In this document: positions 16,532 through 61,742 of the stretch, in pieces
Layout of the letters: each line of letters opens with the position of its first letter
How positions within the stretch are numbered: position 1 is the stretch's first letter
From: an uncultured virus (IMG/VR IMGVR_UViG_3300017991_000058)
Taxonomy: Duplodnaviria > Heunggongvirae > Uroviricota > Caudoviricetes
Strand: one strand, 5' to 3'
Virus record (IMG/VR): IMGVR_UViG_3300017991_000058
DNA length: 64,000 nucleotides
Notes under the pieces: generated by a model
Seen by the model: the letters and a program-made list of their open reading frames with translations, nothing else
What the model was told of the DNA's origin: nothing
Database searches by the model: none
Translations under genes and position numbers: made by a program

Positions 16532-16667
16532 GTCGCCTCCGTCCGTGTGCACGTACCGTTACTGCTCGTCTTCGGGCGAGACGGCGGGCGAGACGTACGC
16601 CGGCCGGCAGAACGGAGAGACGGGCCCGGCGAGACGATCGGCCCTCAGGACGGCCGCCGGGCGGCCT

Positions 16668-17090
16668 CTACAGCAGCGCCCCTCCGGTGACCTTGAGCGA
16701 CACGGACGTCGCCCCGGACAGGGTCAGGGCGTCTAGCCGCACCGCGACGTCGTGCCCCGCGGCTGCGACGGACACGGCGTCGTCGCCCGTGACCCCCGCC
16801 GACGACCCGAACTCCTTCCACCGCCGGCCGCTCGCGGCGGCCGGGTCGCGCGTGGCCATGAGGAAGGCGACGTCGACGCTGCCGCCTGCGACGGGAGCTC
16901 CGCCGGCGTCCTCGAAGTCGACGACCAGCTGGACGCTCTGCCACTCCCGCGCGTCGAGCGTGACGCCGTCGGCGGTCTCCGGCACGATCAGGTTGTCGGG
17001 CGTCCACGCCGCCGCGTCGATCGCGGTCCGAGAGCTCCGAACCGCGACGACCGCCCGGTGGTCGTACAGCCGCTGCTTCGTCACTGACAT
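16668..17090 (-). CDS. Hypothetical beta-rich protein (possibly virion)
   Basis: AGGAGG RBS and TATACT upstream; 140 aa. Confidence 0.6.
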   Translation of the reverse strand: MSVTKQRLYDHRAVVAVRSSRTAIDAAAWTPDNLIVPETADGVTLDAREWQSVQLVVDFEDAGGAPVAGGSVDVAFLMATRDPAAASGRRWKEFGSSAGVTGDDAVSVAAAGHDVAVRLDALTLSGATSVSLKVTGGALL

Positions 17091-17240
17091 CGCCCCTCCT
17101 GCGGGTTCGCGGAAAGTATAGACGATCCGGGACCGGTTTGGATACGCCGCCCCGCCGCGAGACGGGCCTCAGAAGCCGCGCGGCGGGCTCGGTCAGGGGG
17201 GACGACGGCGGCGCGGGAGCCGGGCGGCTCTCGGCGGGCG

Positions 17241-17933
17241 TCAGGCGGCCTCGAGCAGCATCCGGCGGACCTGCGTCGCGGCGAACGTCCGCCCCGTGCG
17301 AGACCTGTGGCCGCGGCGGTCGAGCTCGGCGGCGATCTTCCGGAGCGAGAGCCCGTCGGCTCGGAGCTCCCTGGCGACGTCGACGACGGCGGCCTCTCGA
17401 TCGTCGCGCTCGAGAGTCCGCCCGTCGGCGGCGAGGCGCCGGCCGTACGGGATCGAGCCGACCCGCTCGCCGCGGGCCTTCTTGTGGGCCAGGGCGGCGC
17501 GCGTGCGCTCGGCGGTGGTGTTCCGCTCCAGCTCGGCGAACCCGGCCATCATCGTCAGGAAGAACCGGCCCATCGCCGAGCCGGTGTCGATCGTCTGCCC
17601 GCCCATGTCGACCAGGTGGAGGGCGACGCCGCGGCGGTCCCAGTCGCGGGTGACTACGAGCGCGTCGGCGCAGTCGCGGAACAGGCGGTCGAGCTTGTAC
17701 GCCACGACGGCGGAGACGTCCCCCCGCTCGACCAGACCCAGGACGCGGAGCCCGCCGTCCCGATCGGACAGCGGCCGGCCGGCGGAGACGCCGGCGTCGA
17801 CGACGACGTCGACGAGCTCGAGCCCGCGAAGCTCGCAGTAGGCGCGGAGCGCTGCGGCCTGGGCGTCGAGCGAGACGCCGACGTCGACCTGCTCGTCGGT
17901 CGACACGCGGGCGTATCCGACGACGCGGGTCAT
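17241..17933 (-). CDS. Serine recombinase (resolvase/invertase family)
   Basis: GYARVST..Q catalytic motif, KLDRL.R, AE.ER....ERT, PYG, C-terminal DNA-binding region. Confidence 0.93.
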   Translation of the reverse strand: MTRVVGYARVSTDEQVDVGVSLDAQAAALRAYCELRGLELVDVVVDAGVSAGRPLSDRDGGLRVLGLVERGDVSAVVAYKLDRLFRDCADALVVTRDWDRRGVALHLVDMGGQTIDTGSAMGRFFLTMMAGFAELERNTTAERTRAALAHKKARGERVGSIPYGRRLAADGRTLERDDREAAVVDVARELRADGLSLRKIAAELDRRGHRSRTGRTFAATQVRRMLLEAA

Positions 17934-18229
17934 CGAGCTGCCCCCGCGACTCTCGCCGCCATGCGGCGGACGAGAGAGGCCATCCTGGCGACGGCCGCGT
18001 CCGAGGAGTCCCGGACGTGCGACCAGTCCCAGATCAGGTCCATCTTCCGATCGGTCATCGGACCGCGGAGCGCGCCGAACCCGTCCGCGAGCTCGCGGAC
18101 GCGGATCTGAGCCCGCGCGGCGAGCCTGTGCTCGCTCGAGCTCGAGAGCGCCGCTACGACGACGTCCCAGTCGTCGTCGAGGGCGAGGAACGAGGTCGCT
18201 GCGGCGGCGGTCATCGTTGAGACGGTCAT
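17930..18229 (-). CDS. Hypothetical protein
   Basis: ATG 18229 coupled to neighbours; WDWSHVRDSS. Confidence 0.55.
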   Translation of the reverse strand: MTVSTMTAAAATSFLALDDDWDVVVAALSSSSEHRLAARAQIRVRELADGFGALRGPMTDRKMDLIWDWSHVRDSSDAAVARMASLVRRMAARVAGAAR

Positions 18230-18423
18230 CTCGCGTCCCTCTCGGCGTTGCGGGCCTGAATCATGCGGACCGCCGCCTCCTCCTCTATGCGCGCGGCGCT
18301 GTCCAAGAAGAACCTGCGCTCCGCGTTGGTGTGAGCGCACTTCGCCTTGCCGTAAAGTCTCTCGGCGGTAGCGATCCGCTCGTCCGCCATAGCCTTGAAC
18401 ATCTTCGCTGCCGTGCTGACCAT
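18226..18423 (-). CDS. Small hypothetical protein, first gene after promoter cassette 1
   Basis: ATG 18423 after GGAGGG. Confidence 0.6.
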   Translation of the reverse strand: MVSTAAKMFKAMADERIATAERLYGKAKCAHTNAERRFFLDSAARIEEEAAVRMIQARNAERDAR

Positions 18424-18430
18424 GTCCCTG

Positions 18431-18516
18431 CCCTCCATCTACTCTCAATATAGTATACCGGGGGGGACCTGTCAAGAGGAAATCGACCGGGGGGACGAGA
18501 AAGTTCAAGGGGGGAT
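18431..18516 (-). promoter_or_regulatory. Repeated promoter/RBS cassette, copy 1
   Basis: TTGACA(18475-18470)-N17-TATATT(18452-18447), then AGATGGAGGG. Confidence 0.85.
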
Positions 18517-19395: not shown

Positions 19396-19453
19396 CCCTC
19401 CATCTGCTCTCAACATAGTATACCTAGGGAGACCTGTCAAGAGGGTAATCGAC
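19396..19453 (-). promoter_or_regulatory. Repeated promoter/RBS cassette, copy 2
   Basis: TTGACA(19440-19435)-N17-TATGTT, then AGATGGAGGG. Confidence 0.85.
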
Positions 19454-20883: not shown

Positions 20884-20968
20884 CCTCCGTTGCGGCGTTA
20901 GGTATAATCTAGTATACCCTGGGAGACCTGTCAAGAGGGAACGACGGGGATCGCACGGAAAGTTCAGG
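20884..20968 (-). promoter_or_regulatory. Repeated promoter/RBS cassette, copy 3
   Basis: TTGACA(20934-20929)-N17-TAGATT, same GTATAC core. Confidence 0.8.
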
Positions 20969-22534: not shown

Positions 22535-22617
22535 CCCTCCATCTGCCTTCAATATAGTATACCCTAGGAGACCTGTCAAGAGGAAATCGACGGGGGGAGT
22601 CGAAAAGATCTCCCCCC
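22535..22617 (-). promoter_or_regulatory. Repeated promoter/RBS cassette, copy 4
   Basis: TTGACA(22579-22574)-N17-TATATT, then AGATGGAGGG. Confidence 0.85.
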
Positions 22618-22628: not shown

Positions 22629-23060
22629 CTAGTCCAGGATGCGGACGCCGCGGCGGGAGGCCGGCGCGACCCAGAGAGCCATGCGGCGCGCGGCCGGCGT
22701 CTCCTCGTCGCCGTCGACGAGGTAGACGCGGAGCCCGGTGCGGATGGCGACGCCCTCGGCGGAGAACGGCGACGCGTAGAAGAGATGCATCGGACCGGCC
22801 GAGGTGAAGACGAGACGAACGTACGTCGTGTTGTTGAACAGCTTGATCGCCTCGATCTGGGCCCCGCGGTTGCCGGTCTCCTCGAAGTCCCGGCGGGCGA
22901 TGGCCTCGCGGGCGTAGACGGGCTCGGCGTCGGCGACTGCGGCGGCGAGCTCCGCGGCCGCGGCGTCGACGACGGCCTTGGGGAGCGCCGCGAAGGTCTC
23001 GGCGGCGGCGGTGAGAACTGCGGTTGCGGTTGCGGCGACTGCGGCGATGACTGCGTCCAT
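22629..23060 (-). CDS. Hypothetical protein, first gene after promoter cassette 5
   Basis: ATG 23060 after GGAGGG. Confidence 0.6.
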   Translation of the reverse strand: MDAVIAAVAATATAVLTAAAETFAALPKAVVDAAAAELAAAVADAEPVYAREAIARRDFEETGNRGAQIEAIKLFNNTTYVRLVFTSAGPMHLFYASPFSAEGVAIRTGLRVYLVDGDEETPAARRMALWVAPASRRGVRILD

Positions 23061-23067
23061 TTCGTTT

Positions 23068-23155
23068 CCCTCCATCTGCCTATCAGCTTAGTATACCGGC
23101 GGGGACCTGTCAAGAGGAAATCGACCGGGGAGGGCGAGAAAGTTCAGGGGGGAGA
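23068..23155 (-). promoter_or_regulatory. Repeated promoter/RBS cassette, copy 5
   Basis: TTGACA(23113-23108)-N17-TAAGCT, then AGATGGAGGG. Confidence 0.85.
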
Positions 23156-23533
23156 TCTGCCCCCGTCGACCGGAATGGCGGAGCGGACGGGGCACGGCGC
23201 CGGAAGGGGGCACTCGCAGACGGGGCAGGGCGGGCAGACCTCGACGATCTCGATCCCGTCGTCGGTCTGAACGGGAACGCGCTCCGGCCGGCGCTCGTCT
23301 CCCTTTCCGATGAGATCGCCGAGACTCGTGATGTTCTCGGCGGGGGCCCAGACGAGCAGGACGGCCAGCGAGAGGGCGAGCAGGCCGAATGAGAACGCGA
23401 CGACGGCGGCGACGATCATCGCGCTCCGGTTCGTCGCCGGCATCCGGACCTCGATGCCCGGCAGCTTCAGCTCGATCTCTCCGCGGCTGTCGGTGTTCTC
23501 GACGAGCGGCCGACGCTTCTTCTTCGAGGACAT
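23144..23533 (-). CDS. Single-pass membrane protein with Cys/Pro-rich tail
   Basis: MSSKKKRR...; hydrophobic MIVAAVVAFSFGLLALSLAVLLVW; CPPCPVCECP. Confidence 0.6.
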   Translation of the reverse strand: MSSKKKRRPLVENTDSRGEIELKLPGIEVRMPATNRSAMIVAAVVAFSFGLLALSLAVLLVWAPAENITSLGDLIGKGDERRPERVPVQTDDGIEIVEVCPPCPVCECPLPAPCPVRSAIPVDGGRSPP

Positions 23534-23760
23534 CAGCGACGGCCGACGTTCACTACGGCCGGGATCAGTCCGAGGTCGACGAGGTGCTGGATCGAGCTCC
23601 CGACGGCGTCGTCCGGAGCCCCAATACGGTCGGCGAGCTCGCGCAGGTCGTCCACGAAACCGTCGGGCACGAACGCGACGGTTCCAGGAGCGAGACCCTC
23701 TGAGGAGACGGCTCGGACGCGGAGACCGCACCCGAAGTCGACAACGACGTCATCTGCCAT
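23533..23760 (-). CDS. Small hypothetical protein
   Basis: Coupled in operon. Confidence 0.45.
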   Translation of the reverse strand: MADDVVVDFGCGLRVRAVSSEGLAPGTVAFVPDGFVDDLRELADRIGAPDDAVGSSIQHLVDLGLIPAVVNVGRR

Positions 23761-23965
23761 CGCCGCCGGCCCAGCCCTTCTCGTTCGCGACGAGCCTCGC
23801 CGCGGCGTCGGCGTCCACCCGATCGAACCCTAGATCGGAGACGAACAGCTCCACGTCTCGGGCCACCTCGTCCGGGAGGACGGCGCCGCGGAAGTGAGAG
23901 AGCATCACCATGAACTGGCCCAGCTCTCTCGGCTCGTACGCCTCTGTGATCATCAGCGCGCACAT
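23750..23965 (-). CDS. Small hypothetical protein
   Basis: Extended -10 TGCTACAAT and GAGG upstream. Confidence 0.5.
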   Translation of the reverse strand: MCALMITEAYEPRELGQFMVMLSHFRGAVLPDEVARDVELFVSDLGFDRVDADAAARLVANEKGWAGGDGR

Positions 23966-24011
23966 GTCGCTCTACCTCGCGTCGTATTGTAGCACGCCGC
24001 ACCCGTAGACG

Positions 24012-24434
24012 TTACTGCTCACCGAGCTCGACGACGCGCATTGACAGCTTCGGGGCGTTGACCCCCCCGGTCACGACGCGGGGGAACCCGGCGCGTTCGT
24101 ACTGCACGTCGGCGATGGTCCAGTCGACCGAAGCGAAGGACTCGATCTCGAACAGGCGAGAGGGCCCCCCGCAGCCCAGGTCGGAGACAAGGACGAACGC
24201 ATACGTCCCGAAGTCCCCGAATCCGCACGGGTCGGGCAGGTCGAGGAGTGTCAGGTCCAAGACGCCGGCCGCCCTGCAGTCGTCCGGGGCGGACGTCAGG
24301 TCGGACGAGACGCAGGCCAGCTCGAACACGCCGCGATCGGCGCCTCCTAGCCTCCACGCCGCCAGGCGGGCCGCGAGGTCGTCGCGGTCCGCGCCGAACA
24401 CAGCGACCATTCGGTACGCCATGCGGACCGTCAC
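24012..24434 (-). CDS. RLG-motif family protein (weak form)
   Basis: DDLAARLAAWRLGG; ends EQ* on the GAGCAGTAAC motif. Confidence 0.55.
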   Translation of the reverse strand: MTVRMAYRMVAVFGADRDDLAARLAAWRLGGADRGVFELACVSSDLTSAPDDCRAAGVLDLTLLDLPDPCGFGDFGTYAFVLVSDLGCGGPSRLFEIESFASVDWTIADVQYERAGFPRVVTGGVNAPKLSMRVVELGEQ

Positions 24435-24724
24435 GGCCGCGGCCTCCGCTCGAGCGCGTCGAGCCGCCTCTCGACGGTGTCTATCCGCTCGACGACCGCG
24501 CGCAGTGTGGCGGCGAGAGAGAAGACCTCGTCGACCGCATAGACGGCCCTCCGCACCGCGTACGCGAAGTGGGAGACGCCGGGCGACTGACCGGCCCAGC
24601 TCTCGAACATGTCGTTCGGAACGGCGTCGACGACGGCGCGCTCGAGCGAGTCGTCTCCGAGCCTCCTGGCGGCGTCTCGCTCGGCGACGGCGGCAAGCAG
24701 CCAGTGCGGCGCGCGGTAGGTCAC
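24431..24724 (-). CDS. Hypothetical coiled-coil protein
   Basis: Coupled GTGA overlaps. Confidence 0.5.
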   Translation of the reverse strand: MTYRAPHWLLAAVAERDAARRLGDDSLERAVVDAVPNDMFESWAGQSPGVSHFAYAVRRAVYAVDEVFSLAATLRAVVERIDTVERRLDALERRPRP

Positions 24725-25533
24725 CCGTCGTCGTCTCCGGACGGCGCCGGGACTCTCGGGGGCGGGTCCAGTCCGAGGTCCGCCGGCCCGTCGTCAGGCG
24801 GCTGGAATGGGGTGAACGTCCCGCACCTGACCCCGTCCGGGTTCGGGTCGTCCTCGAGCATGGCGGACAGCTCGGCGTGGCGGGCGGCGAGCTCGCCGAC
24901 GTAGTGGCCGACGCCGCGCGACGGGTCGGGGCGCCCGCATCCGAGAGCCTCGACTGCGACCCAGAAGCACTCGTTCAGCTCTCTCTCAGCCGGAGCCGGA
25001 TCGACGCGCTCGGCCGGCCAGACGTCCGTCGGACCGAGCTCCCACCCGTCCCGTCGACCGGAGCCGTCGGCGGACGCCGCGGCGGGCGTCGCCCACATCG
25101 CCGCGTCGAGACGGACCACGGGCCGCCCCCGCTCGTCGACGCACACCACCGTGGCGCCGGACCCGGCGGCCCCTCCGGGAACCCCTAGGTCGACGAGAAC
25201 GTCGCGCCGGACCCCGACGCGGTCTCCTACCGACGGAACGTACGGCTTGAACGTCACAGGCCCTCCATCCTCCCCACAGGTCCGAACACCGAACACCAGA
25301 TTGAACGTCGTTCCCTCGCAGATCAAGAACGGACCGCGAGCGGGTCTCAGCCCGCCGCCGCACCTAGGGCACTCCGTCGGTGCGAAGACGAACCCAAACG
25401 GCGCGGAGCACGTCGCGCACCGATAGCAGCCGATCTCACCTCCGAGCCGCCGCGCGGAGACCTCGGCGGCGGACGACGGGAGCACGAGAACCTCCGGCTC
25501 GGGCGGCGTCGGCGGGTCCACCTGGCGCGTCAC
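24721..25533 (-). CDS. Hypothetical protein with zinc ribbon and SH3-like segment
   Basis: CATC...CPRCG; VGDRVGV. Confidence 0.55.
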   Translation of the reverse strand: MTRQVDPPTPPEPEVLVLPSSAAEVSARRLGGEIGCYRCATCSAPFGFVFAPTECPRCGGGLRPARGPFLICEGTTFNLVFGVRTCGEDGGPVTFKPYVPSVGDRVGVRRDVLVDLGVPGGAAGSGATVVCVDERGRPVVRLDAAMWATPAAASADGSGRRDGWELGPTDVWPAERVDPAPAERELNECFWVAVEALGCGRPDPSRGVGHYVGELAARHAELSAMLEDDPNPDGVRCGTFTPFQPPDDGPADLGLDPPPRVPAPSGDDDG

Positions 25534-26105
25534 CCGGCGAGACGTCGAGCCAGCCGCGCGTTCGCGTCGATGGCCATCAGGGCGCAGAGACGGTCGTCGT
25601 CGTCGAGCCACGGGACGACCCTGGCGATATCCGGGGCCAGGGCGGCGAGACGCGAGACCAGCCCGTCGGTCCCCTCTCCGGCCTTCCCGTTCTGCTTGAG
25701 CTCCAGCTGGACCGGGTTCCTGTACGGCACGGAGCGGACCGCAGGGACGGTCGACAGGTCGCGGCGCGACTTCGGCTCGGGCGCGGCGTCCTCCCCGGGC
25801 TCGACCGCGAGCTCGTCGTCCGTGACGGGGTCAGCCTCCGTCTCCGTCTCCGCAGCCTCGGACTCGACCGGGAACCAGAGCTTGTTCCGCGACCGCCCGT
25901 CGAGCTGGGCGACGACGTCCTGAGACTGGAGTCCCTTCAGGAACCCCCTGACCGTCTGAGAGACGTTCAGGAGGGCCCGCTTGTCGCCCGTCCGCCGCTT
26001 GTACACGACGGCGATGTCTTTGGCCACGACGGCCCCTCCGTTCGCCCTGTTCAGGTCTCTCAGGATCTGCAGGACCATGGCCCGCCCCTTCTCGTCGAAC
26101 TTCAC
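25530..26105 (-). CDS. Possible winged-helix DNA-binding protein
   Basis: AGGAGG RBS; basic N-terminal helix-rich domain, acidic linker. Confidence 0.5.
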   Translation of the reverse strand: MKFDEKGRAMVLQILRDLNRANGGAVVAKDIAVVYKRRTGDKRALLNVSQTVRGFLKGLQSQDVVAQLDGRSRNKLWFPVESEAAETETEADPVTDDELAVEPGEDAAPEPKSRRDLSTVPAVRSVPYRNPVQLELKQNGKAGEGTDGLVSRLAALAPDIARVVPWLDDDDRLCALMAIDANARLARRLAG

Positions 26106-29461: not shown

Positions 29462-29468
29462 GGCCAGG

Positions 29469-29873
29469 TTACTGCTCATCCCGCGACGCCCCGCGCAGCG
29501 CCCGGTTGAAGGCCCTGCCGATCCGCCGCCGCTGGCGGGCCGAGATCTCGGCGCCTCTCTTCTCGATAGCCCTAACCGTGGGATCGTCGTCCCGCCGCGC
29601 GTGGAAGAACCGCGTCCCCCAGCGACGGCAGTCGAACCCGCGGCAGACGACGGGGCGCCAGTCGTAGATCCCGCAGCCGTCCGGCGTCAGATAGACGCAC
29701 TCTCCGTCGGCGTCCTTCAGGACCTCCATCGCGAAGGACCCGTCGCTCATGGTGACGCGCCGCGTCAGCAGCTCCTCGGCGACGTCCTCGTCCCCGACGG
29801 AGAGCAGGACCATCAGGCGGGAGAGCTGGCAGCAGAGCCGGCAGTCTCCGCACGGGACGCGGACGTCGGTCAC
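29469..29873 (-). CDS. YkgJ-family cysteine-cluster protein
   Basis: CGDCRLCC...GECVYL...GCGIYDWRPVVCRGFDC; ends EQ*. Confidence 0.8.
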   Translation of the reverse strand: MTDVRVPCGDCRLCCQLSRLMVLLSVGDEDVAEELLTRRVTMSDGSFAMEVLKDADGECVYLTPDGCGIYDWRPVVCRGFDCRRWGTRFFHARRDDDPTVRAIEKRGAEISARQRRRIGRAFNRALRGASRDEQ

Positions 29874-30191
29874 CCGCGCGCCCTCCCGCCGCCCTTCGGG
29901 CACCACGCGGGCGGTGGGATCGGCCCGCCGTTCGGATTCGTGTCGTTCGGCGACGGGCTCAGCCCGGTGGCCAGACACTTCGTGTATAGCTCTCGGTCGT
30001 GGACCCTGGACCGGAAGTCCGGACACGCGCGGCAGTCTCGAGGACGGCGCTCCGTCATCGCCTGTCTCTCAGCCACTCGGACACGGACAGCCCGATGGAC
30101 CACGCAACGAACACAGCGGTAACGGCCGCCGCGGACGAGAATATGATCGTGAGATCTAGCATGCTCGGCATCTCGAACCTCCGTCTCTCCG

Positions 30192-30553
30192 TTACTGCTC
30201 CATCGCCCGAGTCGCCGGCGGAATCAGCCCGCGCTCCTCCGCGTAACTCAGGAGCGCCGGCCGGACGCGCGGCGGACTAGGGACTCGAACCCTGACAAGC
30301 TCCCTTACGCGCCCGGTCGGCCTGCCGAGTCCGCCGGACCAGCCGAGCGAGCGAACGAACAGCAAGGCGACGGTCTCTCCGCCGACGACCATCTGGAGCA
30401 CGTCGAGGAGATCCTCGGTCCCGACCGGGACGAGCAAGACGGAGGCCCGAGCCGAATCGACGCCTCGGCATCGGCCGAGAGGCAACCCGACTCGACGGCG
30501 GCGGAGACGAGCTGATCGTCTCCGACGGCCCGACTGCGAACGACCGTGTCCAT
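30192..30553 (-). pseudogene. RLG-motif family gene with an apparent 1-nt deletion at ~30447
   Basis: ...ESGCLSADAEASIRLG continues as ASVLLVPVG...AMEQ* if one G is added to GGG. Confidence 0.6.
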
Positions 30554-30560
30554 GGCGTCG

Positions 30561-31031
30561 TTACTGCTCGTCGGGGGCGAACCCCGCCGGGCTCAGAGAC
30601 GTCGAGCTGGATGCGATCCGCCACGCCATCAGGTGGCGCTGCGGGTCCGTCCAGACGTCGGCAAGCTCGAGGTCCGTGACGACCGGAGGGAGGACGAACG
30701 CCTGGTCGGCCTCTCGAACGCGGAGCACCCCGTGGGCGTAGCCGCTCGCAGACGCTCCGGGCCAGTAGACGCGGGCGACGCGGTAGGCAGACACAACGGA
30801 CGTCCGCTCGCCGGACACGAGCCCAAGGACCAGCCGCCCGTCCGACGTGACGACAGCGACCCTGAGTCCGGACGGCTCTCGACCGAGGAGATAGGCGGAG
30901 CTGGCCGCGTCGACGGCCCCCCAGTCCACGCCCATGACGACGAGCGTCGTCCGCCGACGCCGCTTGTCGAAGGCTCGGAACACGGCACCGTCGCCGAGAG
31001 GAGCGGCTCCCCAGAGCGACGCGTCCGTCAC
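30561..31031 (-). CDS. Hypothetical protein
   Basis: GTG 31031; ends DEQ* on the motif. Confidence 0.55.
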   Translation of the reverse strand: MTDASLWGAAPLGDGAVFRAFDKRRRRTTLVVMGVDWGAVDAASSAYLLGREPSGLRVAVVTSDGRLVLGLVSGERTSVVSAYRVARVYWPGASASGYAHGVLRVREADQAFVLPPVVTDLELADVWTDPQRHLMAWRIASSSTSLSPAGFAPDEQ

Positions 31032-31552: not shown

Positions 31553-31773
31553 GGACCCTCCAACGGCGGCGGGGCGGCCTCCCGAGCATCGAGGCGTCTC
31601 CGCCCCGCGGGACCTGGAGAGCCCGCCGGGCGACCTCGATTCGCGAGACGAGCCAGGAGGGGGGAGGGGCTGAGCATCACCCCGCCCCGCGTTCGCTCTC
31701 CCGAGCTCGAGAGACCCCCGTCTGAAGCCGGGTCCCGCCTCCAGTGGTTACTGCGCGTCTCGGCGGAGACCCG

Positions 31774-33573: not shown

Positions 33574-34256
33574 CGTCGGGCTCCCAGCCGCACGCGACGC
33601 ATCGAGCGCATGCTATCGACCGCGCTAGGCACCTGGGACAGACCCCGGTGTGGACCCAGTGGAGGTGCGCGTCCGGGGTCCGCGGACGGTAGCGGACGAC
33701 GGCCCCGTCCCTGCACGCGTCGAAGTGCTCGGACAGGAGTCTGTCGGCCAGGTCGGTGCTGTGGTCGGTCATCGCGTCCTCTGCCATCCGAGCCAGGCGC
33801 TCCGCCCGGCTCCCGCAGCGTGGAAGTAGATCCGAATCCCGTCGAACCCGACGTACGTGCGCAGCGACCCCCACGAGCCGTCCGCGTCGACGCGGAGCCC
33901 CTCGCCAGGATACGAACCGAGACGGAGCGTCGTGTCGCCGATCGTGTGCGTCTTCGTGGGCGGCAGGGTCATCGGTACTTCCTCAGTCCGGCCGGGCGGC
34001 GCCCGCCACGCGACTCCAGCACGGCGACGCGGCGCTCGAGCCGCTCGATCTCCGCCGCCTGCGCCCGAGCGACGCGGGCCAGGTCTCCGACCGGCCCGGT
34101 CGCGTTCTCCAAGACCCGCTGAATGAGCTCGGCGGTCTCTCTCTCGGTCATCGGCCACCTCCGTTCCGATTACTGCTCGTCCGCGCCGCGGACGTCCCGG
34201 CCCAGGGCCTCCGACGGACGGCCCGAGCGGCAGGCGGCATATCGGACAGCGGGCGG

Positions 34257-35657: not shown

Positions 35658-35665
35658 CCCGAACG

Positions 35666-35947
35666 TCACTGCTCGTCTCCCCCCGAGGCCCGCCCCGGGC
35701 CTCGGACCGCGTCGACCTCGAACCCCACGACCCGCCCGCCGAGCCACCGGAGCCAGTGCCCCTCGACGCGGACGGCGCCCCCGCCCCCGAACCGGAGCTC
35801 GTAGACCCCGGCCCCGAGCCGCTCGACCGAGAGCGACCCGGAGAGCCGGATCTCCGCCGCGAGCTCGGGCGCGAGCGCGCGGAGCGCCGCGTCGACCGGC
35901 CGGTCCGAGCAGGGGGCGGTCACGACGAGCCCGGCGGAACCGTCCAT
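35666..35947 (-). CDS. RLG-motif family protein
   Basis: ALRALAPELAAEIRLSG; ends DEQ*. Confidence 0.65.
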   Translation of the reverse strand: MDGSAGLVVTAPCSDRPVDAALRALAPELAAEIRLSGSLSVERLGAGVYELRFGGGGAVRVEGHWLRWLGGRVVGFEVDAVRGPGRASGGDEQ

Positions 35948-35949
35948 CC

Positions 35950-36610
35950 CGAACGTCGCTGCTCGCGCGCCCGACCCTCGGACCGAACGTCAGCGCCGGA
36001 AAGGCCGCGCCCCGGGGAGCGGCGGAGCCGAACCGAACGTCCGGCCCGAGACTCCCGGGCGCGACGTCGGCTCCGTCGCGCGGCCCGACCCCGGGGGCAC
36101 CTCCGAGTCGCGGTCCGCCGCGCGGGGCGGCGGGAGCGAGGCCGACCGCCCGCGCGCCCGGGGCACCCCGAAGACCGGAGCCGCGCGGGCGGTCGCACGC
36201 CGCCCGCGGCGAGCCCGCGCGAGACGTCCGAACAGAAGGCGACCGCCCGCGGGGCGGGCGCGCGGGCGGTCCGAACCCGTAGATGACCGCCCGCGGGGCG
36301 CGGAGGACTCGGATCGCGGTGGGGAGGGCTGTCCGACGGACCGAAGCCGAACCGACGGACCGGGACCCCCCGGGGGGCAGGCCGGGGCCGAGCCCGGCCC
36401 GCCGAGGGTGACGGGATACCGTCACCTCCGCATCGATAGAGATCACGGGGGGTTGCGCGGGCACGGGCCGTGACCGCACGGACCCCGCGTCACGGCGGCG
36501 GCGGCGGGAGGGCGCTCGACGTGGCGCAGTGTGGCCCAATCCGCGTGGGATGACGCGGGGTTAGGTGACCCCACCGATCGGGAGCGCTCCCCCGGCGCGC
36601 GCGCGCGTAC
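35950..36610. repeat. Non-coding, extremely GC-rich region with direct and inverted GACCGCCCGCG repeats
   Basis: 14-bp IR 36143-36156/36182-36195; 11-bp IR 36241-36251/36261-36271; 16-bp DR 36241-36256/36285-36300. Confidence 0.75.
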
Positions 36611-40107: not shown

Positions 40108-40488
40108 TCACGGGACCAACCTGACGTTCAGCCCGACGACTCGCCTGCCGCGCTCGACGAGGTCGAACGTCGACTCCCACGAGCTGACCAACTCGTGGTC
40201 CGTCGCGGCGGAGAGCCTGAGCGCGACCGCCTCGGCCCGCATCCCGGCGCGCTCCAGCGCCGCGACGACGACGTCGCGCAGCGTCCCGTCGACGTGGGAC
40301 GGGGCACGGGGCGCGCCGACGGACCAGAGGTGGACGTCGCAGACGGAGACTCCGCGGGCCGCGCCGTCGACAAACACCTCCCCGCAGATCGGGCGACGGC
40401 ATCCGCCCACCCCGCACGTCGGCCCGTCTCGTCGTCGGCGTCGCTCCACGCCCCCGTCTCTGCTCGGCGGGCGTCGTCCCGGGCCCAA
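40108..40488 (-). CDS. RLG-motif family protein (weak form) with Cys cluster; start uncertain
   Basis: LERAGMRAEAVALRLSA; CGVGGC..CDVH. Confidence 0.45.
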   Translation of the reverse strand: MGPGRRPPSRDGGVERRRRRDGPTCGVGGCRRPICGEVFVDGAARGVSVCDVHLWSVGAPRAPSHVDGTLRDVVVAALERAGMRAEAVALRLSAATDHELVSSWESTFDLVERGRRVVGLNVRLVP

Positions 40489-40529
40489 CGTTCGCTCTGG
40501 CGCTCGACGCGGCGAGCAGGGACGGGGGC

Positions 40530-44434: not shown

Positions 44435-44739
44435 CGTCCTAAGTCCTCTCGCCGGGACGGGGCGCACATCTCGACGCTGAGGATGGGGCGCCTGAGAGAC
44501 CTGAGGACGTTTAGAGAGCCCGGGACGGCCACGATCCTGAGCAGCGCCGGCGCCCCGTCGGCGGACACCTCGAACACGTCGCGGTCGACGCCCCGCTCCG
44601 CGATGGAGACGTCGACCGACGACGCGAGCCTCAGCTCGGCCTCTGCGGCCGCGTGCCCCTCGAAGCGGAGCTGAGCGAGGAGCCTGTCGAGCAGCCCTCT
44701 TGCGATCGGACGTCCCACTCGAGCGTCTCTGCTCGCCAC
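44431..44739 (-). CDS. RLG-motif family protein (AEAELRLA subtype)
   Basis: LRFEGHAAAEAELRLAS. Confidence 0.6.
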   Translation of the reverse strand: MASRDARVGRPIARGLLDRLLAQLRFEGHAAAEAELRLASSVDVSIAERGVDRDVFEVSADGAPALLRIVAVPGSLNVLRSLRRPILSVEMCAPSRREDLGR

Positions 44740-44798
44740 GCGGGCCCCCGAGCCTGACGTTCAGCCCGGACCCCGAGCTCGCGAGCAGTACCGACGAC

Positions 44799-47106: not shown

Positions 47107-47390
47107 CAGAGACCCCACCTGGTCTCGACCCCCAAGTCGCGCCAGTACGACTTGACCTGCAGGTCTCGCAGGAGGACGCACGCGACCCACGACGCCGACG
47201 AGTACGGCAGCACGACGCTGGACAGAAGGCTGCGGCGATCTGGATGGTACAGGTCCAGGGCTATCGACTCGTCGCTCGACAGACTGAGGACCGCCCGCAC
47301 GGCGCGAGACTCTCCGAGCATGATGGAGGCCGAGACGGCCGACGGAAGCGTCTCGAGGACGGCGGACACCAGATGGTCAGACGCGGTCAC
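47106..47390 (-). CDS. RLG-motif family protein
   Basis: VLETLPSAVSASIMLGE. Confidence 0.62.
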   Translation of the reverse strand: MTASDHLVSAVLETLPSAVSASIMLGESRAVRAVLSLSSDESIALDLYHPDRRSLLSSVVLPYSSASWVACVLLRDLQVKSYWRDLGVETRWGL

Positions 47391-47751
47391 TGCTCACCCC
47401 ACCATCGTTACTGCTCGCCGCGCGGCGGTGGTCGTCCGCCCGCTCGATCGCGGTCCACCCAAGGTCGTCCACCCAGCGTGTGACGAGCCCCGCGAACGCC
47501 GCGGCGACTAACATGTCGTCCCGCGTCAACCACCCGCGGACGACGTCCCTCGCGACGATCTCGATCGGCTCCGAAAGCACGACGGGACGACGGACGATCA
47601 TGGCCTCGACGGGGCGGCCGTTCGACGTCCCCAAAGGGGCGCGGTCCGGACAGATTCTCCATACAAGAGCGTACCCGGCCCCGCCTCCGAGGCGGAGCTC
47701 CGACTCGATCTCGTCCGGGACGTCGAGCAGGTCGAACGCGGCGACGGTCAC
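47377..47751 (-). CDS. RLG-motif family protein
   Basis: LLDVPDEIESELRLGGG. Confidence 0.72.
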   Translation of the reverse strand: MTVAAFDLLDVPDEIESELRLGGGAGYALVWRICPDRAPLGTSNGRPVEAMIVRRPVVLSEPIEIVARDVVRGWLTRDDMLVAAAFAGLVTRWVDDLGWTAIERADDHRRAASSNDGGVSSDRV

Positions 47752-49460: not shown

Positions 49461-49471
49461 AGCTCCCCATA

Positions 49472-49774
49472 TTACTGCGCGTCGGCGAACCGGACGAGCG
49501 GGAGCCCCAGCGCGTCGGCGACCGGGGAGAGGCAGACCTCCGCGACGAGCTGGCCGCACTCCGGGATCGAGTACGTCGCCACGACCCCGGCCGGCCCGCG
49601 GAGCCACACGGACCTCTGCCCGACTGCGTAGGGCCCGATCATCAGCGATAGTCCGAACGTCTCGCCCCCGCCGAGGCGTATCAGGGAGGCAACGTGCGGC
49701 GGGGCGCCGGCGAGGATCTCCTCGGCAATGAGCCGCGGCTCGGCCCCCATGGCCAGCCGAGACGTCACGTCCAC
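49472..49774 (-). CDS. RLG-motif family protein
   Basis: ILAGAPPHVASLIRLGGG; LGLPL; ends AQ*. Confidence 0.72.
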   Translation of the reverse strand: MDVTSRLAMGAEPRLIAEEILAGAPPHVASLIRLGGGETFGLSLMIGPYAVGQRSVWLRGPAGVVATYSIPECGQLVAEVCLSPVADALGLPLVRFADAQ

Positions 49775-51472: not shown

Positions 51473-51506
51473 CCGTTACTGCGCGGAGCCTGGCGAGCAG
51501 TAACGG
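51473..51506. promoter_or_regulatory. Back-to-back pair of G(A/C)GCAGTAAC motifs at a divergent junction
   Basis: CCGTTACTGC(51473-51482)/GCAGTAACGG(51497-51506); start codons 6 nt past each motif (GTG 51468 on -, ATG 51511 on +). Confidence 0.75.
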
Positions 51507-52465: not shown

Positions 52466-53393
52466 CGAGACGGCGGCGCGACTGATCGAGACGGATCTTC
52501 CGGCCAGAGACCGAGAGGTCGTGGCGACGCTCGTGAACTCCATCATCAGGTACGTCCCGCGCGAAGCGTGGCCGACGTGCGTCGCGGACTTCCACGACCG
52601 CGTCGTCGCGGACATGCTGGACCGAACCCTGCGCCCCGCACCGTCAAACGAGGCACCGGCTCCGGCATCAGACGGAACGGCACCGCCGTCGGAGACGGCG
52701 CCAGAAGAAGCGCCTACACCGCCAGAGGAACAGCCACGGACGTCAGAGAAACTACCGACTCCGTCAGACGAGACGGTCAAGAAGGAGATCGGCGTGTACA
52801 AGCCAGTGGCCTGGGACGATCAGCCTCTAGGAGAGGTGCCGGACACGGAGCTGGCCAAGCGGCTCGGCGTGTCCAACGTCGCCGTCGGAAGGGCGAGACG
52901 GCGCCGAGGGATACCGTCGTTCAGCACGAGTGCGTTCAACGAGGCCGGGGCCGACCGAAGGGGCGGACGGGTAGGGATAGACTGGGACGCACAGCCGCTG
53001 GGCGAGATGAAGGACGCAGAGCTGGCACGCCGTCTCGGAGTCCACAGGAGCTCCGTCAACAGCGCGCGGAGAGCCAGAGGCATCCCGGCGGCCAGGGCGG
53101 AGAGGGCGCGCCCCGAGGCGAAGAGAAGGCCGCCGCCGAAAGTGAAGCGGACGAAGGCGCGGCCGGCAGAGAGCCGCCAACCGCGGACGGATGACGGCGC
53201 CCCGCCGCACGTCCACCGCTGCCCGGAGTGCGGCTCCGACACCCCGTGCGACAGCCCGGACTGCGAGCCGAAGCTCGAGACCCGCGACGGGACCCCGATG
53301 TCCTACAAGACATGCGAGGAGTGCGTCGCCAAGCTGAGCGCCTCCACGACCAAGGTTCCGATCAAGGTCGGGGCGTTCGGCGGCGGCCTGTGA
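52458..53393 (+). CDS. DNA-binding protein with two tandem HTH repeats and a C-terminal zinc finger
   Basis: WD.QPLGE..D.ELA.RLGV....V..ARR.RGIP twice; CPEC..C..C..CEEC. Confidence 0.75.
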   Translation: MANETAARLIETDLPARDREVVATLVNSIIRYVPREAWPTCVADFHDRVVADMLDRTLRPAPSNEAPAPASDGTAPPSETAPEEAPTPPEEQPRTSEKLPTPSDETVKKEIGVYKPVAWDDQPLGEVPDTELAKRLGVSNVAVGRARRRRGIPSFSTSAFNEAGADRRGGRVGIDWDAQPLGEMKDAELARRLGVHRSSVNSARRARGIPAARAERARPEAKRRPPPKVKRTKARPAESRQPRTDDGAPPHVHRCPECGSDTPCDSPDCEPKLETRDGTPMSYKTCEECVAKLSASTTKVPIKVGAFGGGL

Positions 53394-56087: not shown

Positions 56088-56108
56088 GGCGGACCTCCTT
56101 CGTCCACG

Positions 56109-56399
56109 TTACTGCGCATCCGGCGGGAACCGTAGCCAGAGCTCGAACGGAGGGGAGCCCGGCGGGACGCTGACGACGGTCGGCGGCACGTCTCCCGGAA
56201 CGTCGTAGCTCGTGGATGATATTCCGGGGTAAGTCTCCCTGAACACGTCGACCGCGATCGATCTCCGCTCTACGAATGCAGTGGAGACGGTCCACAGCTC
56301 CGGCTCCCGGCCGAACATGACGACGGACCCCTCCGGAGGGACGGCCGGGTCGCCCAGTCGCAGGGCGGCGTTCACCCGTCGGAGATCGTCGGGGGTCAC
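56109..56399 (-). CDS. RLG-motif family, PPFxxW subfamily
   Basis: NAALRLGDPAVPPEG...SPPFELW; ends AQ*. Confidence 0.65.
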   Translation of the reverse strand: MTPDDLRRVNAALRLGDPAVPPEGSVVMFGREPELWTVSTAFVERRSIAVDVFRETYPGISSTSYDVPGDVPPTVVSVPPGSPPFELWLRFPPDAQ

Positions 56400-59253: not shown

Positions 59254-59660
59254 CGCCTGAGCCCCAACGTCGCCATGGCCAGCCTCGTCGCGTACGTCCT
59301 CCAGCCGGCGTTCCTCGCCCCCTCCCACATCCACCGCACGGTCGACGGATGGCGGCACGCACCGATCACGCACGGCGGGTCGGTCCCGCCGACTGCGAAC
59401 GCGTAGACGACGGCGGCGGGGTCTAGCGGGCGGGTCGCGGCTATCGTCGACGGCCTGACCGACGGGGTCGCGGAGACGTTGGGCTCCAGGGCCGTGCGCT
59501 CGACCCGCACGCTGAGCGCGATCGGCCCGCCGAGCCTGAGGACCGACTCGAGCTCCGGCGGGAGCAGGGACGTCACCCTGCGCGCGGCGCGCGCGAACCG
59601 ATCCATCGTCGCGGACATCGGGTCGCCGGAGTAGGAGAAGATCTCGTCGAGGTCTCTCAT
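59250..59660 (-). CDS. RLG-motif family protein
   Basis: SLLPPELESVLRLGG. Confidence 0.72.
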   Translation of the reverse strand: MRDLDEIFSYSGDPMSATMDRFARAARRVTSLLPPELESVLRLGGPIALSVRVERTALEPNVSATPSVRPSTIAATRPLDPAAVVYAFAVGGTDPPCVIGACRHPSTVRWMWEGARNAGWRTYATRLAMATLGLRR

Positions 59661-60055
59661 CTCGCGCTCCAGCGCCCGTCCGCCCCGGGCCGCCCTACGT
59701 AGAGCCCGCTGTCGCACCAGCCGAGCGCCTGAACGGCCGCCCGCACGAGGCGGGCGGTCATGATGCGGGACGTTCTCCCGAGGACGACGTCCCTAGCGTC
59801 GCCCGGGAAGCGGGCGACGACGTGCCAGGACTTCCGTCCCGGTCTCCGGATGAGCATGACGGTGAGGCGGAGGTCCCCCCCCAGCCGAGCCGCCGATGCG
59901 GTCTCCGGATCGAAGGCGCCGAGCTGGGCGAGCAGTACGTCGACGGCGGCCGCGACGTCGAGACTGCCGCCGCCCGACGCGCCGCGCAGCTCGACGTCCA
60001 GGTCCAGGCCCCCGCGAGGGGCCCCAGGAAGGTGCGTGAGGGGCCTTCGAGCCAT
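59657..60055 (-). CDS. RLG-motif family protein
   Basis: AFDPETASAARLGG. Confidence 0.68.
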   Translation of the reverse strand: MARRPLTHLPGAPRGGLDLDVELRGASGGGSLDVAAAVDVLLAQLGAFDPETASAARLGGDLRLTVMLIRRPGRKSWHVVARFPGDARDVVLGRTSRIMTARLVRAAVQALGWCDSGLYVGRPGADGRWSAR

Positions 60056-60090
60056 CCGGGGTACGTTACTGCTCTTCGTCGCCGCGGCGC

Positions 60091-60381
60091 TCACGAGAGC
60101 CGCCAGACGGCCTCGCGAGCGTCTCCGGCGGGCCCGGTCGGCCTGGCCAGGACGTCGACGCGGAACACCCCGGCAGGCCAGTGGTCCTCGATTTGCCTCA
60201 TGACGTAGCCCTCGATCTCCTCCGCCGAGCTGGTGTAGGGGGACTCGTCGTAGACGACGATCACAGAGAACCCGTCCACGCCCGGCTCTATCCGCACGTC
60301 GTAGGCCGCGCAGAAGTCGCGCCCGATCACGCCGACGACCGTGTCGACGAACAGGTCGAGCCGCGGGCCGGGTCGGGCCAC
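60091..60381 (-). CDS. C-terminal WRL-motif protein; paralog of 15189-15467
   Basis: PAGVFRVDVLARPTGPAGDAREAVWRLS. Confidence 0.62.
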   Translation of the reverse strand: MARPGPRLDLFVDTVVGVIGRDFCAAYDVRIEPGVDGFSVIVVYDESPYTSSAEEIEGYVMRQIEDHWPAGVFRVDVLARPTGPAGDAREAVWRLS

Positions 60382-60692
60382 TACGAGACTCCGTCTAGGA
60401 GTCGCCGCCACAGGCGGCCCGTCGGGGGCGAGAACCGCTCGGCGAGGACGGCGCGGTGGGGGCGGAGGGCGACGACGACGGCGGTGGCCATCCCGACGTA
60501 GCGGCCGTCGACGTACATGTGCCACAGCTCTCCGTCCCCGACGGCGCTCATGTCGGGGCGGCTGCGCGGCCCGCCGAACTCCCACCGGACGTCCGCCGCG
60601 AGACGAATTCTGGCCTCCAGGTCCGGCGACAGCCACCCCCTCCCCAGGATCGACTCGAGAAGCACGGACGCGGAGTCGTAGTTCAGGCTCAT
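60381..60692 (-). CDS. RLG-motif family protein
   Basis: GWLSPDLEARIRLAA. Confidence 0.62.
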   Translation of the reverse strand: MSLNYDSASVLLESILGRGWLSPDLEARIRLAADVRWEFGGPRSRPDMSAVGDGELWHMYVDGRYVGMATAVVVALRPHRAVLAERFSPPTGRLWRRLLDGVS

Positions 60693-60696
60693 CCCG

Positions 60697-60984
60697 TCAC
60701 CCGTGAAACGGAGCGTTGTACATCCGCCAGCCAATCATCTTGAGAACGACGTACAGCATCAGCTGCTGCTCGTCGACTCTCCAGGCGACGGCCGGAGCCA
60801 TGCCGATCCAGACGACGGCGATGATGCCGGGGCTCTCGTCGTCCGGCCGGCTGAACAGAACGGTCGCGGACCCGCCCAGCCTGACAGAGGCGCGGTCGTC
60901 GGCGTCGGGGATGGTCCCGATCAGCCAGTCGACGGCCCCGCCGATGGACAGCTCAGCCAGCGCCGAGTCGACGGCTATCTCCAC
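60697..60984 (-). CDS. RLG-motif family protein
   Basis: LIGTIPDADDRASVRLGG. Confidence 0.62.
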   Translation of the reverse strand: MEIAVDSALAELSIGGAVDWLIGTIPDADDRASVRLGGSATVLFSRPDDESPGIIAVVWIGMAPAVAWRVDEQQLMLYVVLKMIGWRMYNAPFHG

Positions 60985-61376
60985 CGGCGGCAACACCGGA
61001 GCTCTCTCCTCATCCGCATCCTGTCTATGGCGTCGGCGTACGGCTCCATCGCCGCCGTGTCGCCGCCCCCCGGGAACCGGAGGTCGAACACACGCCATCC
61101 CTGCATGGTTCCGAGGCGCAGCACGGCCGCGACGGCGAACCCGTCGTCGTGCCCGAGCAGGGTCACGTCGACCCACTCCTCGCCCTCACCGTCCACGCGG
61201 GCCTTCAGCAGGGCCGGTCCGTCGTCCGGCTCCCCCCAGACCAGCAGCTCTACAACGGCTCCCAGCCTCGCCGCGGCGGACGCCTCCGCCGAGATCCGCT
61301 CCTCGACGAACAGCCGAGTGACCATGGCGATGTCGTCGTCCGACACGGGGCCCTCTGGTCCTTCAAGCATCTCCAT
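60975..61376 (-). CDS. RLG-motif family protein
   Basis: ISAEASAAARLGA. Confidence 0.6.
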   Translation of the reverse strand: MEMLEGPEGPVSDDDIAMVTRLFVEERISAEASAAARLGAVVELLVWGEPDDGPALLKARVDGEGEEWVDVTLLGHDDGFAVAAVLRLGTMQGWRVFDLRFPGGGDTAAMEPYADAIDRMRMRRELRCCRRWR

Positions 61377-61379
61377 AGG

Positions 61380-61742
61380 TTACTGCTCGTCGCGGCGCGG
61401 GCCGAGCAGGGCGACGGACTCCCCGTCGAGTCGACGTCCGCTCTCCGACGTCAGCATGACCCAGTGACTGGCGCACGGAGTCAACCACGTTCGCCCCAAG
61501 AACGAGCGCGTCAGGGGAATGCCGACCCCGGCGGCGATCTCGTAGGGGACTCGAACGAAGTTGCGGGGGAGCTCGGCGAGGCGAACGTCGCGCCGATACA
61601 GGGTCAATCTGAACCGCCCGGAGCGGGAACCTTCGACGTGGAGACGGAGACCGCCGGCCACGACGTCGTGCGGCCTCTCGGCCAGGCGGATCTCCGAGGC
61701 GATCTCGGGCGGCATCAGAGCGAGTAGCCAGTCTCCCGTCAC
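61380..61742 (-). CDS. RLG-motif family protein
   Basis: WLLALMPPEIASEIRLAE; ends DEQ*. Confidence 0.72.
   Translation of the reverse strand: MTGDWLLALMPPEIASEIRLAERPHDVVAGGLRLHVEGSRSGRFRLTLYRRDVRLAELPRNFVRVPYEIAAGVGIPLTRSFLGRTWLTPCASHWVMLTSESGRRLDGESVALLGPRRDEQ

Follow-up and report, generated by a model that had tools for sequence, protein, structure and literature searches.

A directional ten-base box at gene boundaries in an uncultured phage genome: a candidate core of a phage-specific promoter class

The box and its sites

The window, that is, the whole 64,000-nucleotide stretch of DNA analysed here, from an uncultured high-GC phage, contains 135 called genes, as defined by a custom codon-usage caller rather than a standard tool. 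Twelve exact copies of GMGCAGTAAC occur in it, 11 on the minus strand and one on the plus strand (51495), and all twelve lie where an initial annotation made from the sequence had placed them. The expected count is 0.06 in dinucleotide-preserving shuffles (n = 100) and 0.08, with a maximum of 1, in triplet-block shuffles (n = 300); the enrichment over a codon-aware null that the annotation anticipated is thus borne out. The top over-represented 8-mer of the window, GTTACTGC, is the reverse complement of the box core (11 observed versus 0.04 expected).

The six variants that had also been listed (TAAT at 34169 and 49471, TGAC at 35665 and 47386, CGAC at 35955 and TACC at 44783) were all recovered, and three new sites, 40456 (minus), 40514 (plus) and 44725 (minus), bring the total at gene boundaries to 21. 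The relaxed pattern GMGCAGNRAC has 23 matches in the window, 18 at gene boundaries and five within genes (14759, 25582, 33859, 57986 and 59562); none of the latter contains TAA. The extended consensus of the box is gacG(A/C)GCAGTAACg, and outside −3 to +11 no sequence conservation is found among the sites. The boundary sites are listed below, with distances counted from the last base of the box to the start codon.

16558..16567, minus strand: GAGCAGTAAC, in a 115 nt intergenic gap; GTG 16552 at 5 nt; alternative start ATG 16531 at 26 nt, after GGAGG; downstream a DAHP synthase gene first, then a packed string into terminase and head genes
24011..24020, minus strand: GAGCAGTAAC; TAA is the stop of gene 24012–24434; next start ATG 23965, 45 nt on
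29468..29477, minus strand: GAGCAGTAAC; TAA is the stop of gene 29469–29873 (CxxCxxCC domain); ATG 29461 at 6 nt
30191..30200, minus strand: GAGCAGTAAC; TAA is the stop of ORF 30192–30437; GGAGG, then ATG 30171 at 19 nt
30560..30569, minus strand: GAGCAGTAAC; TAA is the stop of gene 30561–31031; ATG 30553 at 6 nt, the sole start within 130 nt
31747..31756, minus strand: GCGCAGTAAC, intergenic; next clear start ATG 31552, 194 nt on, the intervening DNA having no coding signal
34169..34178, minus strand: variant GAGCAGTAAT, intergenic; GGAGG, then ATG 34151 at 17 nt
35665..35674, minus strand: variant GAGCAGTGAC; TGA is the stop of gene 35666–35947; ATG 35657 at 7 nt
35955..35964, minus strand: variant GAGCAGCGAC; ATG 35947 at 7 nt; ACGTTC 20 nt upstream
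40456..40465, minus strand: variant GAGCAGAGAC, minus half of a divergent pair; in-frame GTG 40449 at 6 nt
40514..40523, plus strand: variant GAGCAGGGAC; ATG 40530 at 6 nt; starts plus-strand island 40530–42378
44725..44734, minus strand: variant GAGCAGAGAC, minus half of a divergent pair; GTG 44718 at 6 nt
44783..44792, plus strand: variant GAGCAGTACC; GTG 44799 at 6 nt; precedes the single plus-strand gene 44799–45134
47386..47395, minus strand: variant GAGCAGTGAC, in tandem, 21 nt after 47407; overlapping GTG 47390, another GTG at 16 nt
47407..47416, minus strand: GAGCAGTAAC; upstream gene crosses the box in a different frame; GTG 47390 at 16 nt
49471..49480, minus strand: variant GCGCAGTAAT; TAA is the stop of gene 49472–49774; ATG 49460 at 10 nt
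51475..51484, minus strand: GCGCAGTAAC, divergent pair in a 42 nt intergenic gap; GTG 51468 at 6 nt, the sole start within 130 nt
51495..51504, plus strand: GAGCAGTAAC; ATG 51511 at 6 nt; starts plus-strand island 51511–53393 with a helix–turn–helix protein
56108..56117, minus strand: GCGCAGTAAC; TAA is the stop of gene 56109–56375; GGAGG, then GTG 56087 at 20 nt
60065..60074, minus strand: GAGCAGTAAC, between a stop at 60091 and ATG 60055 (9 nt on, in the frame of gene 59657–60055)
61379..61388, minus strand: GAGCAGTAAC; TAA is the stop of gene 61380–61742; candidate starts are two ATG codons, at 2 and 8 nt, and a GTG at 32 nt

A related box is found in the closest complete relative (G001), where GC(G/T)CAATAAC occurs eight times in the sense orientation and never in antisense (0.09 expected) and the Shine–Dalgarno (SD) sequence lies downstream of the box variant. 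In L043, a short contig, GGAGG and ATG come after GAGCAATAAC in the region that precedes the terminase.

Orientation and spacing

All 21 boundary sites are co-directional with the downstream gene and every plus-strand island is headed by a box, in agreement with the directionality claimed in the initial annotation. At 11 of the 21 the box ends 5–7 nt before the start of an ORF with coding signal (6 nt in eight cases, 7 nt in two and 5 nt in one). Given 23 relaxed matches, random placement would lead to about 0.07 such cases by our own estimate (135 starts × 3 positions over 128,000 strand positions). The seven starts previously noted at +6/+7 (29461, 30553, 35657, 35947, 44799, 51468 and 51511) are retained, and three more at 6 nt (40449, 40530 and 44718) and one at 5 nt (16552) are added to them. 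As far as placement goes, these 11 sites also agree with the suggested −10 position. No competing start codon is present within 130 nt at 30560, 35665, 51475 and 51495, and all three divergent junctions carry outward-facing box pairs, with precisely 6 nt between each copy and the start codon it faces. Some equal gaps stem from duplicated cassettes: the 7 nt gap sequence is identical in 35665 and 35955, and gggggc is common to 40456 and 40514.

None of the 11 starts with the 5–7 nt spacing has an SD core between −18 and −4, against 61 of the 135 called genes. At the longer spacings (17–26 nt) GGAGG lies between the box and the start, an arrangement already described for several copies and found at 30191, 34169 and 56108, and as the alternative at 16558. 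Because GGAGG intervenes at longer, variable spacings, the box does not behave as a translation signal acting at a fixed distance.

The upstream gene terminates within the box, with zero gap, at eight of the 21 sites, and seven unrelated upstream genes use the box TAA as their stop codon. The earlier description of the box as marking operon starts therefore needs to be weakened: all 21 sites do lie at gene boundaries, but the eight boxes that overlap the end of an upstream gene would be internal promoters. The reported absence from the head module holds (no boundary site in 1–16557), as does the link to the paralogue ('RLG') array, in which box copies are interspersed. Site 16558 is located immediately upstream of the tightly packed string that leads into the terminase and head genes.

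A putative promoter class and its alternatives

Judged from sequence, the box probably forms the core of a promoter class specific to the phage, whose mRNAs would be leaderless or carry a short leader, a reading that we hold with moderate confidence. The sites, their orientation and spacing and the lack of structure are observed; promoter function, transcription start and reader are what we infer here. In this model transcription would start ∼7 nt past the last C of the box, and the box would cover roughly −16 to −7, with no fixed −35 partner. A start codon at that position would result in a leaderless mRNA, while the other sites would yield a short leader bearing an ordinary GGAGG ribosome-binding site. 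As a consequence of tight gene packing, the box would often overlap the end of the upstream gene, with its in-frame TAA doubling as the stop codon of that gene.

Five near-consensus TTGACA-N17-TAnnnT promoters are also present in the window (0.3 expected), which would make the box a second class next to these σ70-type promoters. The consensus class is probably served by unmodified host polymerase, and for the box class the polymerase thus probably has to be modified or redirected.

The sequence of the box does not follow the TANNNT, extended −10 or ECF σ patterns. At −12 to −7 it reads AGTAAC; all 18 aligned sites have G at −11, and 16 of the 18 have C at −7. Since A(−11) and T(−7) define −10 elements of the σ70 family, this counts against a promoter. 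A TANNNT −10 element was rejected for lack of both bases, and an extended −10 promoter, which would have TG at −15/−14, because A or C occupies −15 ahead of the invariant G(−14) and the hexamer is non-canonical. A −35 consensus upstream, for which the initial annotation had proposed to look, does not appear in the aligned sites: no upstream k-mer is enriched at a fixed distance, and positions −45 to −4 have an information content close to zero. The box itself was also considered as the −35 element (..GTAAC..) of an ECF σ factor and rejected. A CGT-like −10 would be expected 16–17 nt downstream, where conservation does not extend past +11, and the start would have to lie ∼35 nt after the box, whereas four sites have their sole start codon at 6–7 nt. 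Site 31747, with no clear start for 194 nt downstream, was counted against the promoter reading, as was the result that no RNA run contains this DNA.

It is possible, and we put it forward tentatively, that the box is a one-piece promoter whose G(−11) and C(−7) should make it unmeltable by the principal σ factor, that it is read by a phage specificity factor and that its TAA has been co-opted as the upstream stop. Neither a σ factor nor an RNA polymerase gene, which the initial annotation had suggested seeking, was found in the window, which covers about half of the ∼128 kb genome, nor was a homologue of the σ factor of relatives. Only G001 encodes a divergent σ-like protein, of 176 amino acids. 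The factor could be a very divergent σ factor resembling this protein, or it could be a small σ-appropriating protein encoded by one of the ORFans that follow the five consensus early promoters.

Alternatively, a DNA-binding regulator of the phage (a repressor or activator) may bind the box as an asymmetric site, operator- or stoperator-like and overlapping weakly conserved promoters, which we consider unlikely. The box shares its asymmetry, a length of 10–13 bp, many copies restricted to short intergenic spaces and a direction locked to transcription with L5-type stoperators as described in the available part of PMC9283540. Sites 51475 and 51495 are arranged as an inverted repeat, the island headed by 51495 encodes a helix–turn–helix protein (52458–53393), and three weak variants have an extra ACGTTC-like element 20 nt upstream of them. 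However, the pile-up exactly 6 nt before start codons fits an element that fixes the start site and not a roadblock or operator, other conserved promoter elements are absent near the sites and the interior of the structural gene string carries no box. In addition, no immunity repressor, integrase or integration cassette is recognizable in the window (only half of the genome), where the single recombinase is a 230-amino-acid resolvase-type protein (a small serine recombinase).

An action in RNA is improbable to the same degree. The box would then be a start-associated sequence that recruits a translation factor, or an endoribonuclease site at which polycistronic RNA is trimmed to leaderless or short-leader messages. 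The start-associated sequences (SAS) of Cluster K mycobacteriophages have a similar anatomy in the portion of PMC3203893 available, and eight of the 21 boxes lie within transcribed upstream genes. Against this, the box contains no SD-like core, any SD lies downstream of it at a variable distance, and at the three divergent junctions a box-bearing RNA would require promoters buried in the opposite-strand gene. RNA structure is absent as well, with a mean folding z-score of +0.19 for the 21 sites versus −0.28 for controls, and Rfam returned no matches.

That the box serves coding or termination, as a conserved ...(E/A)-Q peptide at the C-terminus or as a special context for TAA stops, is very hard to maintain: although seven of the nine TAA stops of called genes fall in a box, the last two residues of eight upstream proteins are EQ or AQ and three TAA stops in G001 have a CAATAAC context, the reading is largely refuted by sites without an upstream gene (13 of the 21 end no gene, including all six at divergent junctions), the stop codon is absent from the variants AGAC (twice), GGAC and CGAC and from TACC, and the eight box-ending proteins share no C-terminal similarity.

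If the box is a promoter core, it would provide a transcription map for ∼45 kb of otherwise unannotatable ORFan genes, correct at least six start codons and point to a two-class programme (early versus later) in an uncultured phage known from metagenomes of sediment and seawater. In addition, it would be a case in which the bases at the −10 position violate the A(−11)/T(−7) rule, which would point to an unknown specificity factor, and the TAA that doubles as an upstream stop codon would be a neat example of overlapping codes. Most likely the kind of signal is already known and the sequence of the box is new; as phage-specific promoters of leaderless messages are known, the box opens no new field.

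Comparison with known systems

The late promoters of phage T4 consist of a single TATAAATA element that is read by gp55. In its predicted role the box would resemble them as a one-piece phage promoter at −10, with no −35 element and with a phage specificity factor, but its sequence differs and no gp55-like protein or clamp-loader genes were identified.

In Thermus phage P23-45, extended −10 middle and late promoters are favoured once gp39 displaces σ region 4, according to the available text of PMC3950348. Both phages would have two promoter classes, one with consensus −10 and −35 elements and one without −35, and in both conservation reaches upstream of the −10 hexamer, the G at −14 being invariant in the box. 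Unlike the P23-45 promoters, the box lacks both the TG motif and a canonical −10 hexamer, and no gp39-like factor was identified.

The stoperators of Cluster A phages, in the sections of PMC9283540 available, are likewise many asymmetric sites of ∼13 bp in short intergenic spaces with an orientation linked to transcription. The phages that carry them are temperate and have a known immunity repressor, and these sections report no fixed distance to start codons. The box differs in being tied to the start-codon distance and in that no immunity repressor is recognized in the window.

The Cluster K SAS are 13 bp long, occur in one orientation and only in the non-structural half, lie 3–7 bp before starts and sometimes include the upstream stop codon; their function is given as unknown in the accessible part of PMC3203893. 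The box shares with them its short, asymmetric form, single orientation, non-structural location, proximity to starts and occasional inclusion of the upstream stop. The same text describes an AGGAG SD core in the SAS and proposes a translational role, unlike the box, which has no AGGAG and lies upstream of an SD at 30191, 34169 and 56108 and in G001.

Finally, −10 motifs (TANNNT) of leaderless genes are located ∼6–7 bp upstream of ORFs in Deinococcus–Thermus and Actinobacteria, as described in the available part of PMC12340547. Like these motifs, the box is positioned 6–7 nt before the start, without a ribosome-binding site and with no −35 required. Set against that description, it reads AGTAAC, is conserved over 10–13 bp and is specific to a phage lineage, not to the genome of a host.

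Copies and placement of the box

All 12 exact copies of the box (GMGCAGTAAC) claimed in the initial annotation are present where it places them, against 0.08 expected under a codon-aware null of 300 triplet-block shuffles and 0.06 expected in another shuffle test. Among 8-mers and 10-mers alike, the reverse complement of the box core shows the strongest over-representation in the window. The six variants named in the same annotation (ending in TAAT at 34169 and 49471, TGAC at 35665 and 47386, CGAC at 35955 and TACC at 44783) are also real. The relaxed pattern GMGCAGNRAC gives 23 matches, 18 at gene boundaries and five inside genes, and none of the five intragenic matches contains TAA. The variants ending in TAAT (two) and TACC (one) bring the former 18 to a set of 21 boundary sites, three of which are newly added: 40456 (minus strand), 40514 (plus strand) and 44725 (minus strand). 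Conservation is limited to roughly −3 to +11 relative to the 10-mer (gacGAGCAGTAACgt). The search for an upstream −35 consensus found no box at a fixed distance from the sites.

The proposed orientation with the downstream gene holds at 21 of 21 boundary sites. In 11 of these the box ends 5–7 nt before a start codon whose ORF has coding signal (6 nt in eight, 7 nt in two and 5 nt in one), and at 30560, 35665, 51475 and 51495 no alternative start codon is available within 130 nt. A Shine–Dalgarno (SD) core is present at none of these 11 starts, compared with 61 of 135 genes overall. At three more sites the start codon lies 8–10 nt after the box. GGAGG and then a start codon at 17–26 nt follow the sites at 30191, 34169 and 56108 (and 16558 as an alternative), and the start for site 24011 is at 45 nt. 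The 194 nt after site 31747 (31553–31746, minus strand) have neither coding signal nor a start codon; a long leader or a small RNA may occupy this stretch.

Each of the three plus-strand islands (40530–42378, 44799–45134 and 51511–53393) starts 6 nt after a plus-strand box, and the minus-strand gene diverging from it starts 6 nt after a minus-strand box. The box-to-start gap is 6 nt in six of six cases at these divergent junctions, where one pair of boxes sits within a 42 nt gap. An ACGTTC/AACGTT-like element is seen 20 nt upstream of the weak variants at 35955, 40514 and 44783 and in the middle of two 48 nt divergent spacers (40466–40513 and 44735–44782). Possible readings are an additional regulator site and a remnant of cassette duplication. 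Scans for intrinsic terminators near the box sites gave nothing above chance.

Genomic setting and a probable second promoter class

The window has a G+C content of 70%, and nearly all genes called by our own codon-usage caller lie on the minus strand. The following products were recognized using Pfam.

3010–3939, capsid protein
Prohead protease fusion
Mu-F-like protein
9523–11427, portal protein
12641–14245, large terminase
15470–16552, minus strand, chorismate mutase/DAHP synthase fusion
17244–17933, small serine recombinase
One helix-turn-helix protein, in a plus-strand island

Only the recombinase, one of 94 window proteins, is matched in PHROGs, and the region from 17 to 64 kb consists nearly entirely of ORFans. 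Neither a tRNA nor an Rfam family was found in the window, and the ESM Atlas gives weak helix-turn-helix leads for the 430- and 311-residue proteins and nothing more. A contig of 127,578 bases is recorded as encoding the window's helix-turn-helix protein, so the window covers roughly half the genome of a large phage. The chorismate mutase/DAHP synthase fusion stands directly behind site 16558, first in a string of genes leading into the terminase, and has the appearance of an auxiliary metabolic gene. Relatives of the fusion (42–61% identity) are spread across many phyla, which makes a host call impossible.

The stretch from about 32000 to 62000 harbours many small genes of one large paralogous family, which have an N-terminal segment in common (the RLG array of the initial annotation), with dozens of pairwise BLASTP matches among ORFans of 50–160 amino acids. 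The segment 36000–40000 is very GC-rich (76–77%); both strands carry coding signal at about 37400–38200 and gene calls are unreliable there. In particular, the call at 37913–38182 (plus strand) was rejected as probably spurious, the coding signal being stronger on the minus strand. Between the ATG at 30553 and the stop at 30192 (minus strand), the coding signal moves to another frame at about 30480; a frameshift within a gene, overlap of two short genes or an error in the assembly could account for this. DNA of 27001–37000 is present in eight sediment and seawater metagenome runs from six studies, two of the runs perhaps being where the window comes from; no RNA runs are listed for it. Contigs of four DNA runs over 23001–43000 equal the window except in a few places, none at box sites, and are uninformative on population variation.

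In 16–36 kb, a scan for σ70-type consensus promoters gave four matches where 0.3 would be expected; in 36–64 kb it gave no match. By direct search, five near-identical units of the form TTGACAGGTCyCC...GGTATAC-TAnnnT were identified.

18447–18475, minus strand, TTGACA-TAnnnT unit
19412–19440, minus strand, TTGACA-TAnnnT unit
20906–20934, minus strand, TTGACA-TAnnnT unit
22551–22579, minus strand, TTGACA-TAnnnT unit
23085–23113, minus strand, TTGACA-TAnnnT unit

A GGAGGG site and then ATG come after every unit, and a GTATAC palindrome lies within the spacer. These units are probably a host-polymerase (early) promoter class. Given their presence, canonical −35/−10 promoters are evidently read by the host polymerase and the box belongs to a different class. 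The earlier idea of a separate class, be it temporal or factor-dependent, thereby gains internal support.

Relatives and a candidate reader of the box

The portal protein retrieves 28 IMG/VR loci at 37–59% identity, none of which contains the exact box; one match occurs in five whole records. Megablast of 28000–36000 against the phages collection gave no match, and all terminase protein matches in that collection are below 26% identity. Terminase relatives in metagenome contigs reach at most 64% identity, and no relative of the 435-residue protein was found among these contigs. The closest complete record, G001 (108.6 kb), is 84% identical in the capsid, 63% in the terminase and 59% in the portal protein. 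Here CAATAAC occurs eight times in sense and never in antisense orientation, against 0.09 expected, placing it tenth in the ranking of all 7-mers and at the head of the AT-rich ones. Its context, GC(G/T)CAATAAC, agrees with the box at G.GCA.TAAC. Five of the eight copies lie at gene boundaries; an SD core and start follow at 16–23 nt in five and at 30 and 41 nt in two, and one copy has ATG at 11 nt without SD. A sense-strand GAGCAATAAC, with GGAGG and ATG after it, is present in a 4.3 kb contig whose terminase is 55% identical. CA[AG]TAAC is not enriched in 63 high-GC loci (700,925 bases; four sense and 11 antisense copies against about 33 expected per strand), and counts of SCARTAAC in the further relatives G002–G005 are not above controls. 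Since the more distant relatives show no enrichment, the box is lineage-specific, evolving with the phage.

As an analogue of the box in G001, GAGCAGCGC was rejected, being located inside genes and mostly antisense. GAGCAGC is found 143 times on one strand of G001, against 24.7 expected, and 69 times on the other. The copies are mostly intragenic and antisense, away from gene starts, and may reflect a codon-pair effect or a site biased in orientation.

No σ factor or RNA polymerase was found in the window with E values up to 0.5, and the Pfam domains Sigma70_r2, r4, r4_2 and Rpb1 are absent from G001. A 176-residue protein of G001 (ORF 105034–105564; L034:5034–5564, minus strand) is not recognized by Pfam and can be aligned along its entire length (30% identity, E = 8e-15) with the ECF-like σ factor of G004, which is Pfam-positive. 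With a three-sequence profile of this family, 33 of 34 PDB matches are σ factors, all weak (best E = 0.003). The gene adjoins helicase-like and ATPase-like genes. The window contains no detectable homologue, and word-index searches with the protein and the profile yielded no family member from any contig of the size of the window's phage.

Interpretation of the box

We consider it moderately probable, from its sequence and placement, that the box is a promoter element. It would occupy −16 to −7 and fix the transcription start, as suggested by the sharp minimum at 6 nt, the tail of longer, SD-bearing distances, the six-of-six spacing at the divergent junctions and the lack of SD at the close starts. 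An operator or stoperator-like protein site, of the kind described in PMC9283540, ranks lower; it would be a protein-bound DNA site, present here at gene boundaries and oriented with the downstream gene. A signal like the start-associated sequences of Cluster K mycobacteriophages, or an RNA-processing signal (PMC3203893), is likewise ranked lower. The box is on average half unpaired in predicted folds, the sole hairpin is formed by the inverted pair 51475/51495, and folding of the 80 nt surrounding each of the 21 sites is no stronger than that of shuffled sequence (mean z of +0.19 versus −0.28 for controls), for which reason the box as an RNA structure was rejected. An ECF-type −35 element was also discarded, because nothing is conserved past +11 and at four sites the sole start lies 6–7 nt after the box.

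A stop-codon or C-terminal feature, also ranked lower, would account for the upstream gene terminating at the box TAA in seven sites (at TGA in one variant) and for the box supplying seven of the nine TAA stops among called genes; yet the eight proteins ending in the box share no C-terminal similarity (three belong to the large paralogue family, where the likeness is N-terminal), 13 sites end no gene and five variants lack a stop codon, so the signal lies in the nucleic acid and this use of TAA is a by-product of tight gene packing.

As a promoter element, the box resembles the −10 boxes of leaderless genes, for which PMC12340547 describes a geometry of about 6–7 bp, in its distance to the start codon. 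It differs from their TANNNT in having G at −11 and C at −7, and is therefore not filed as an ordinary principal-σ −10 box. The proposed pair of promoter classes in one phage resembles that of Thermus phage P23-45 (PMC3950348).
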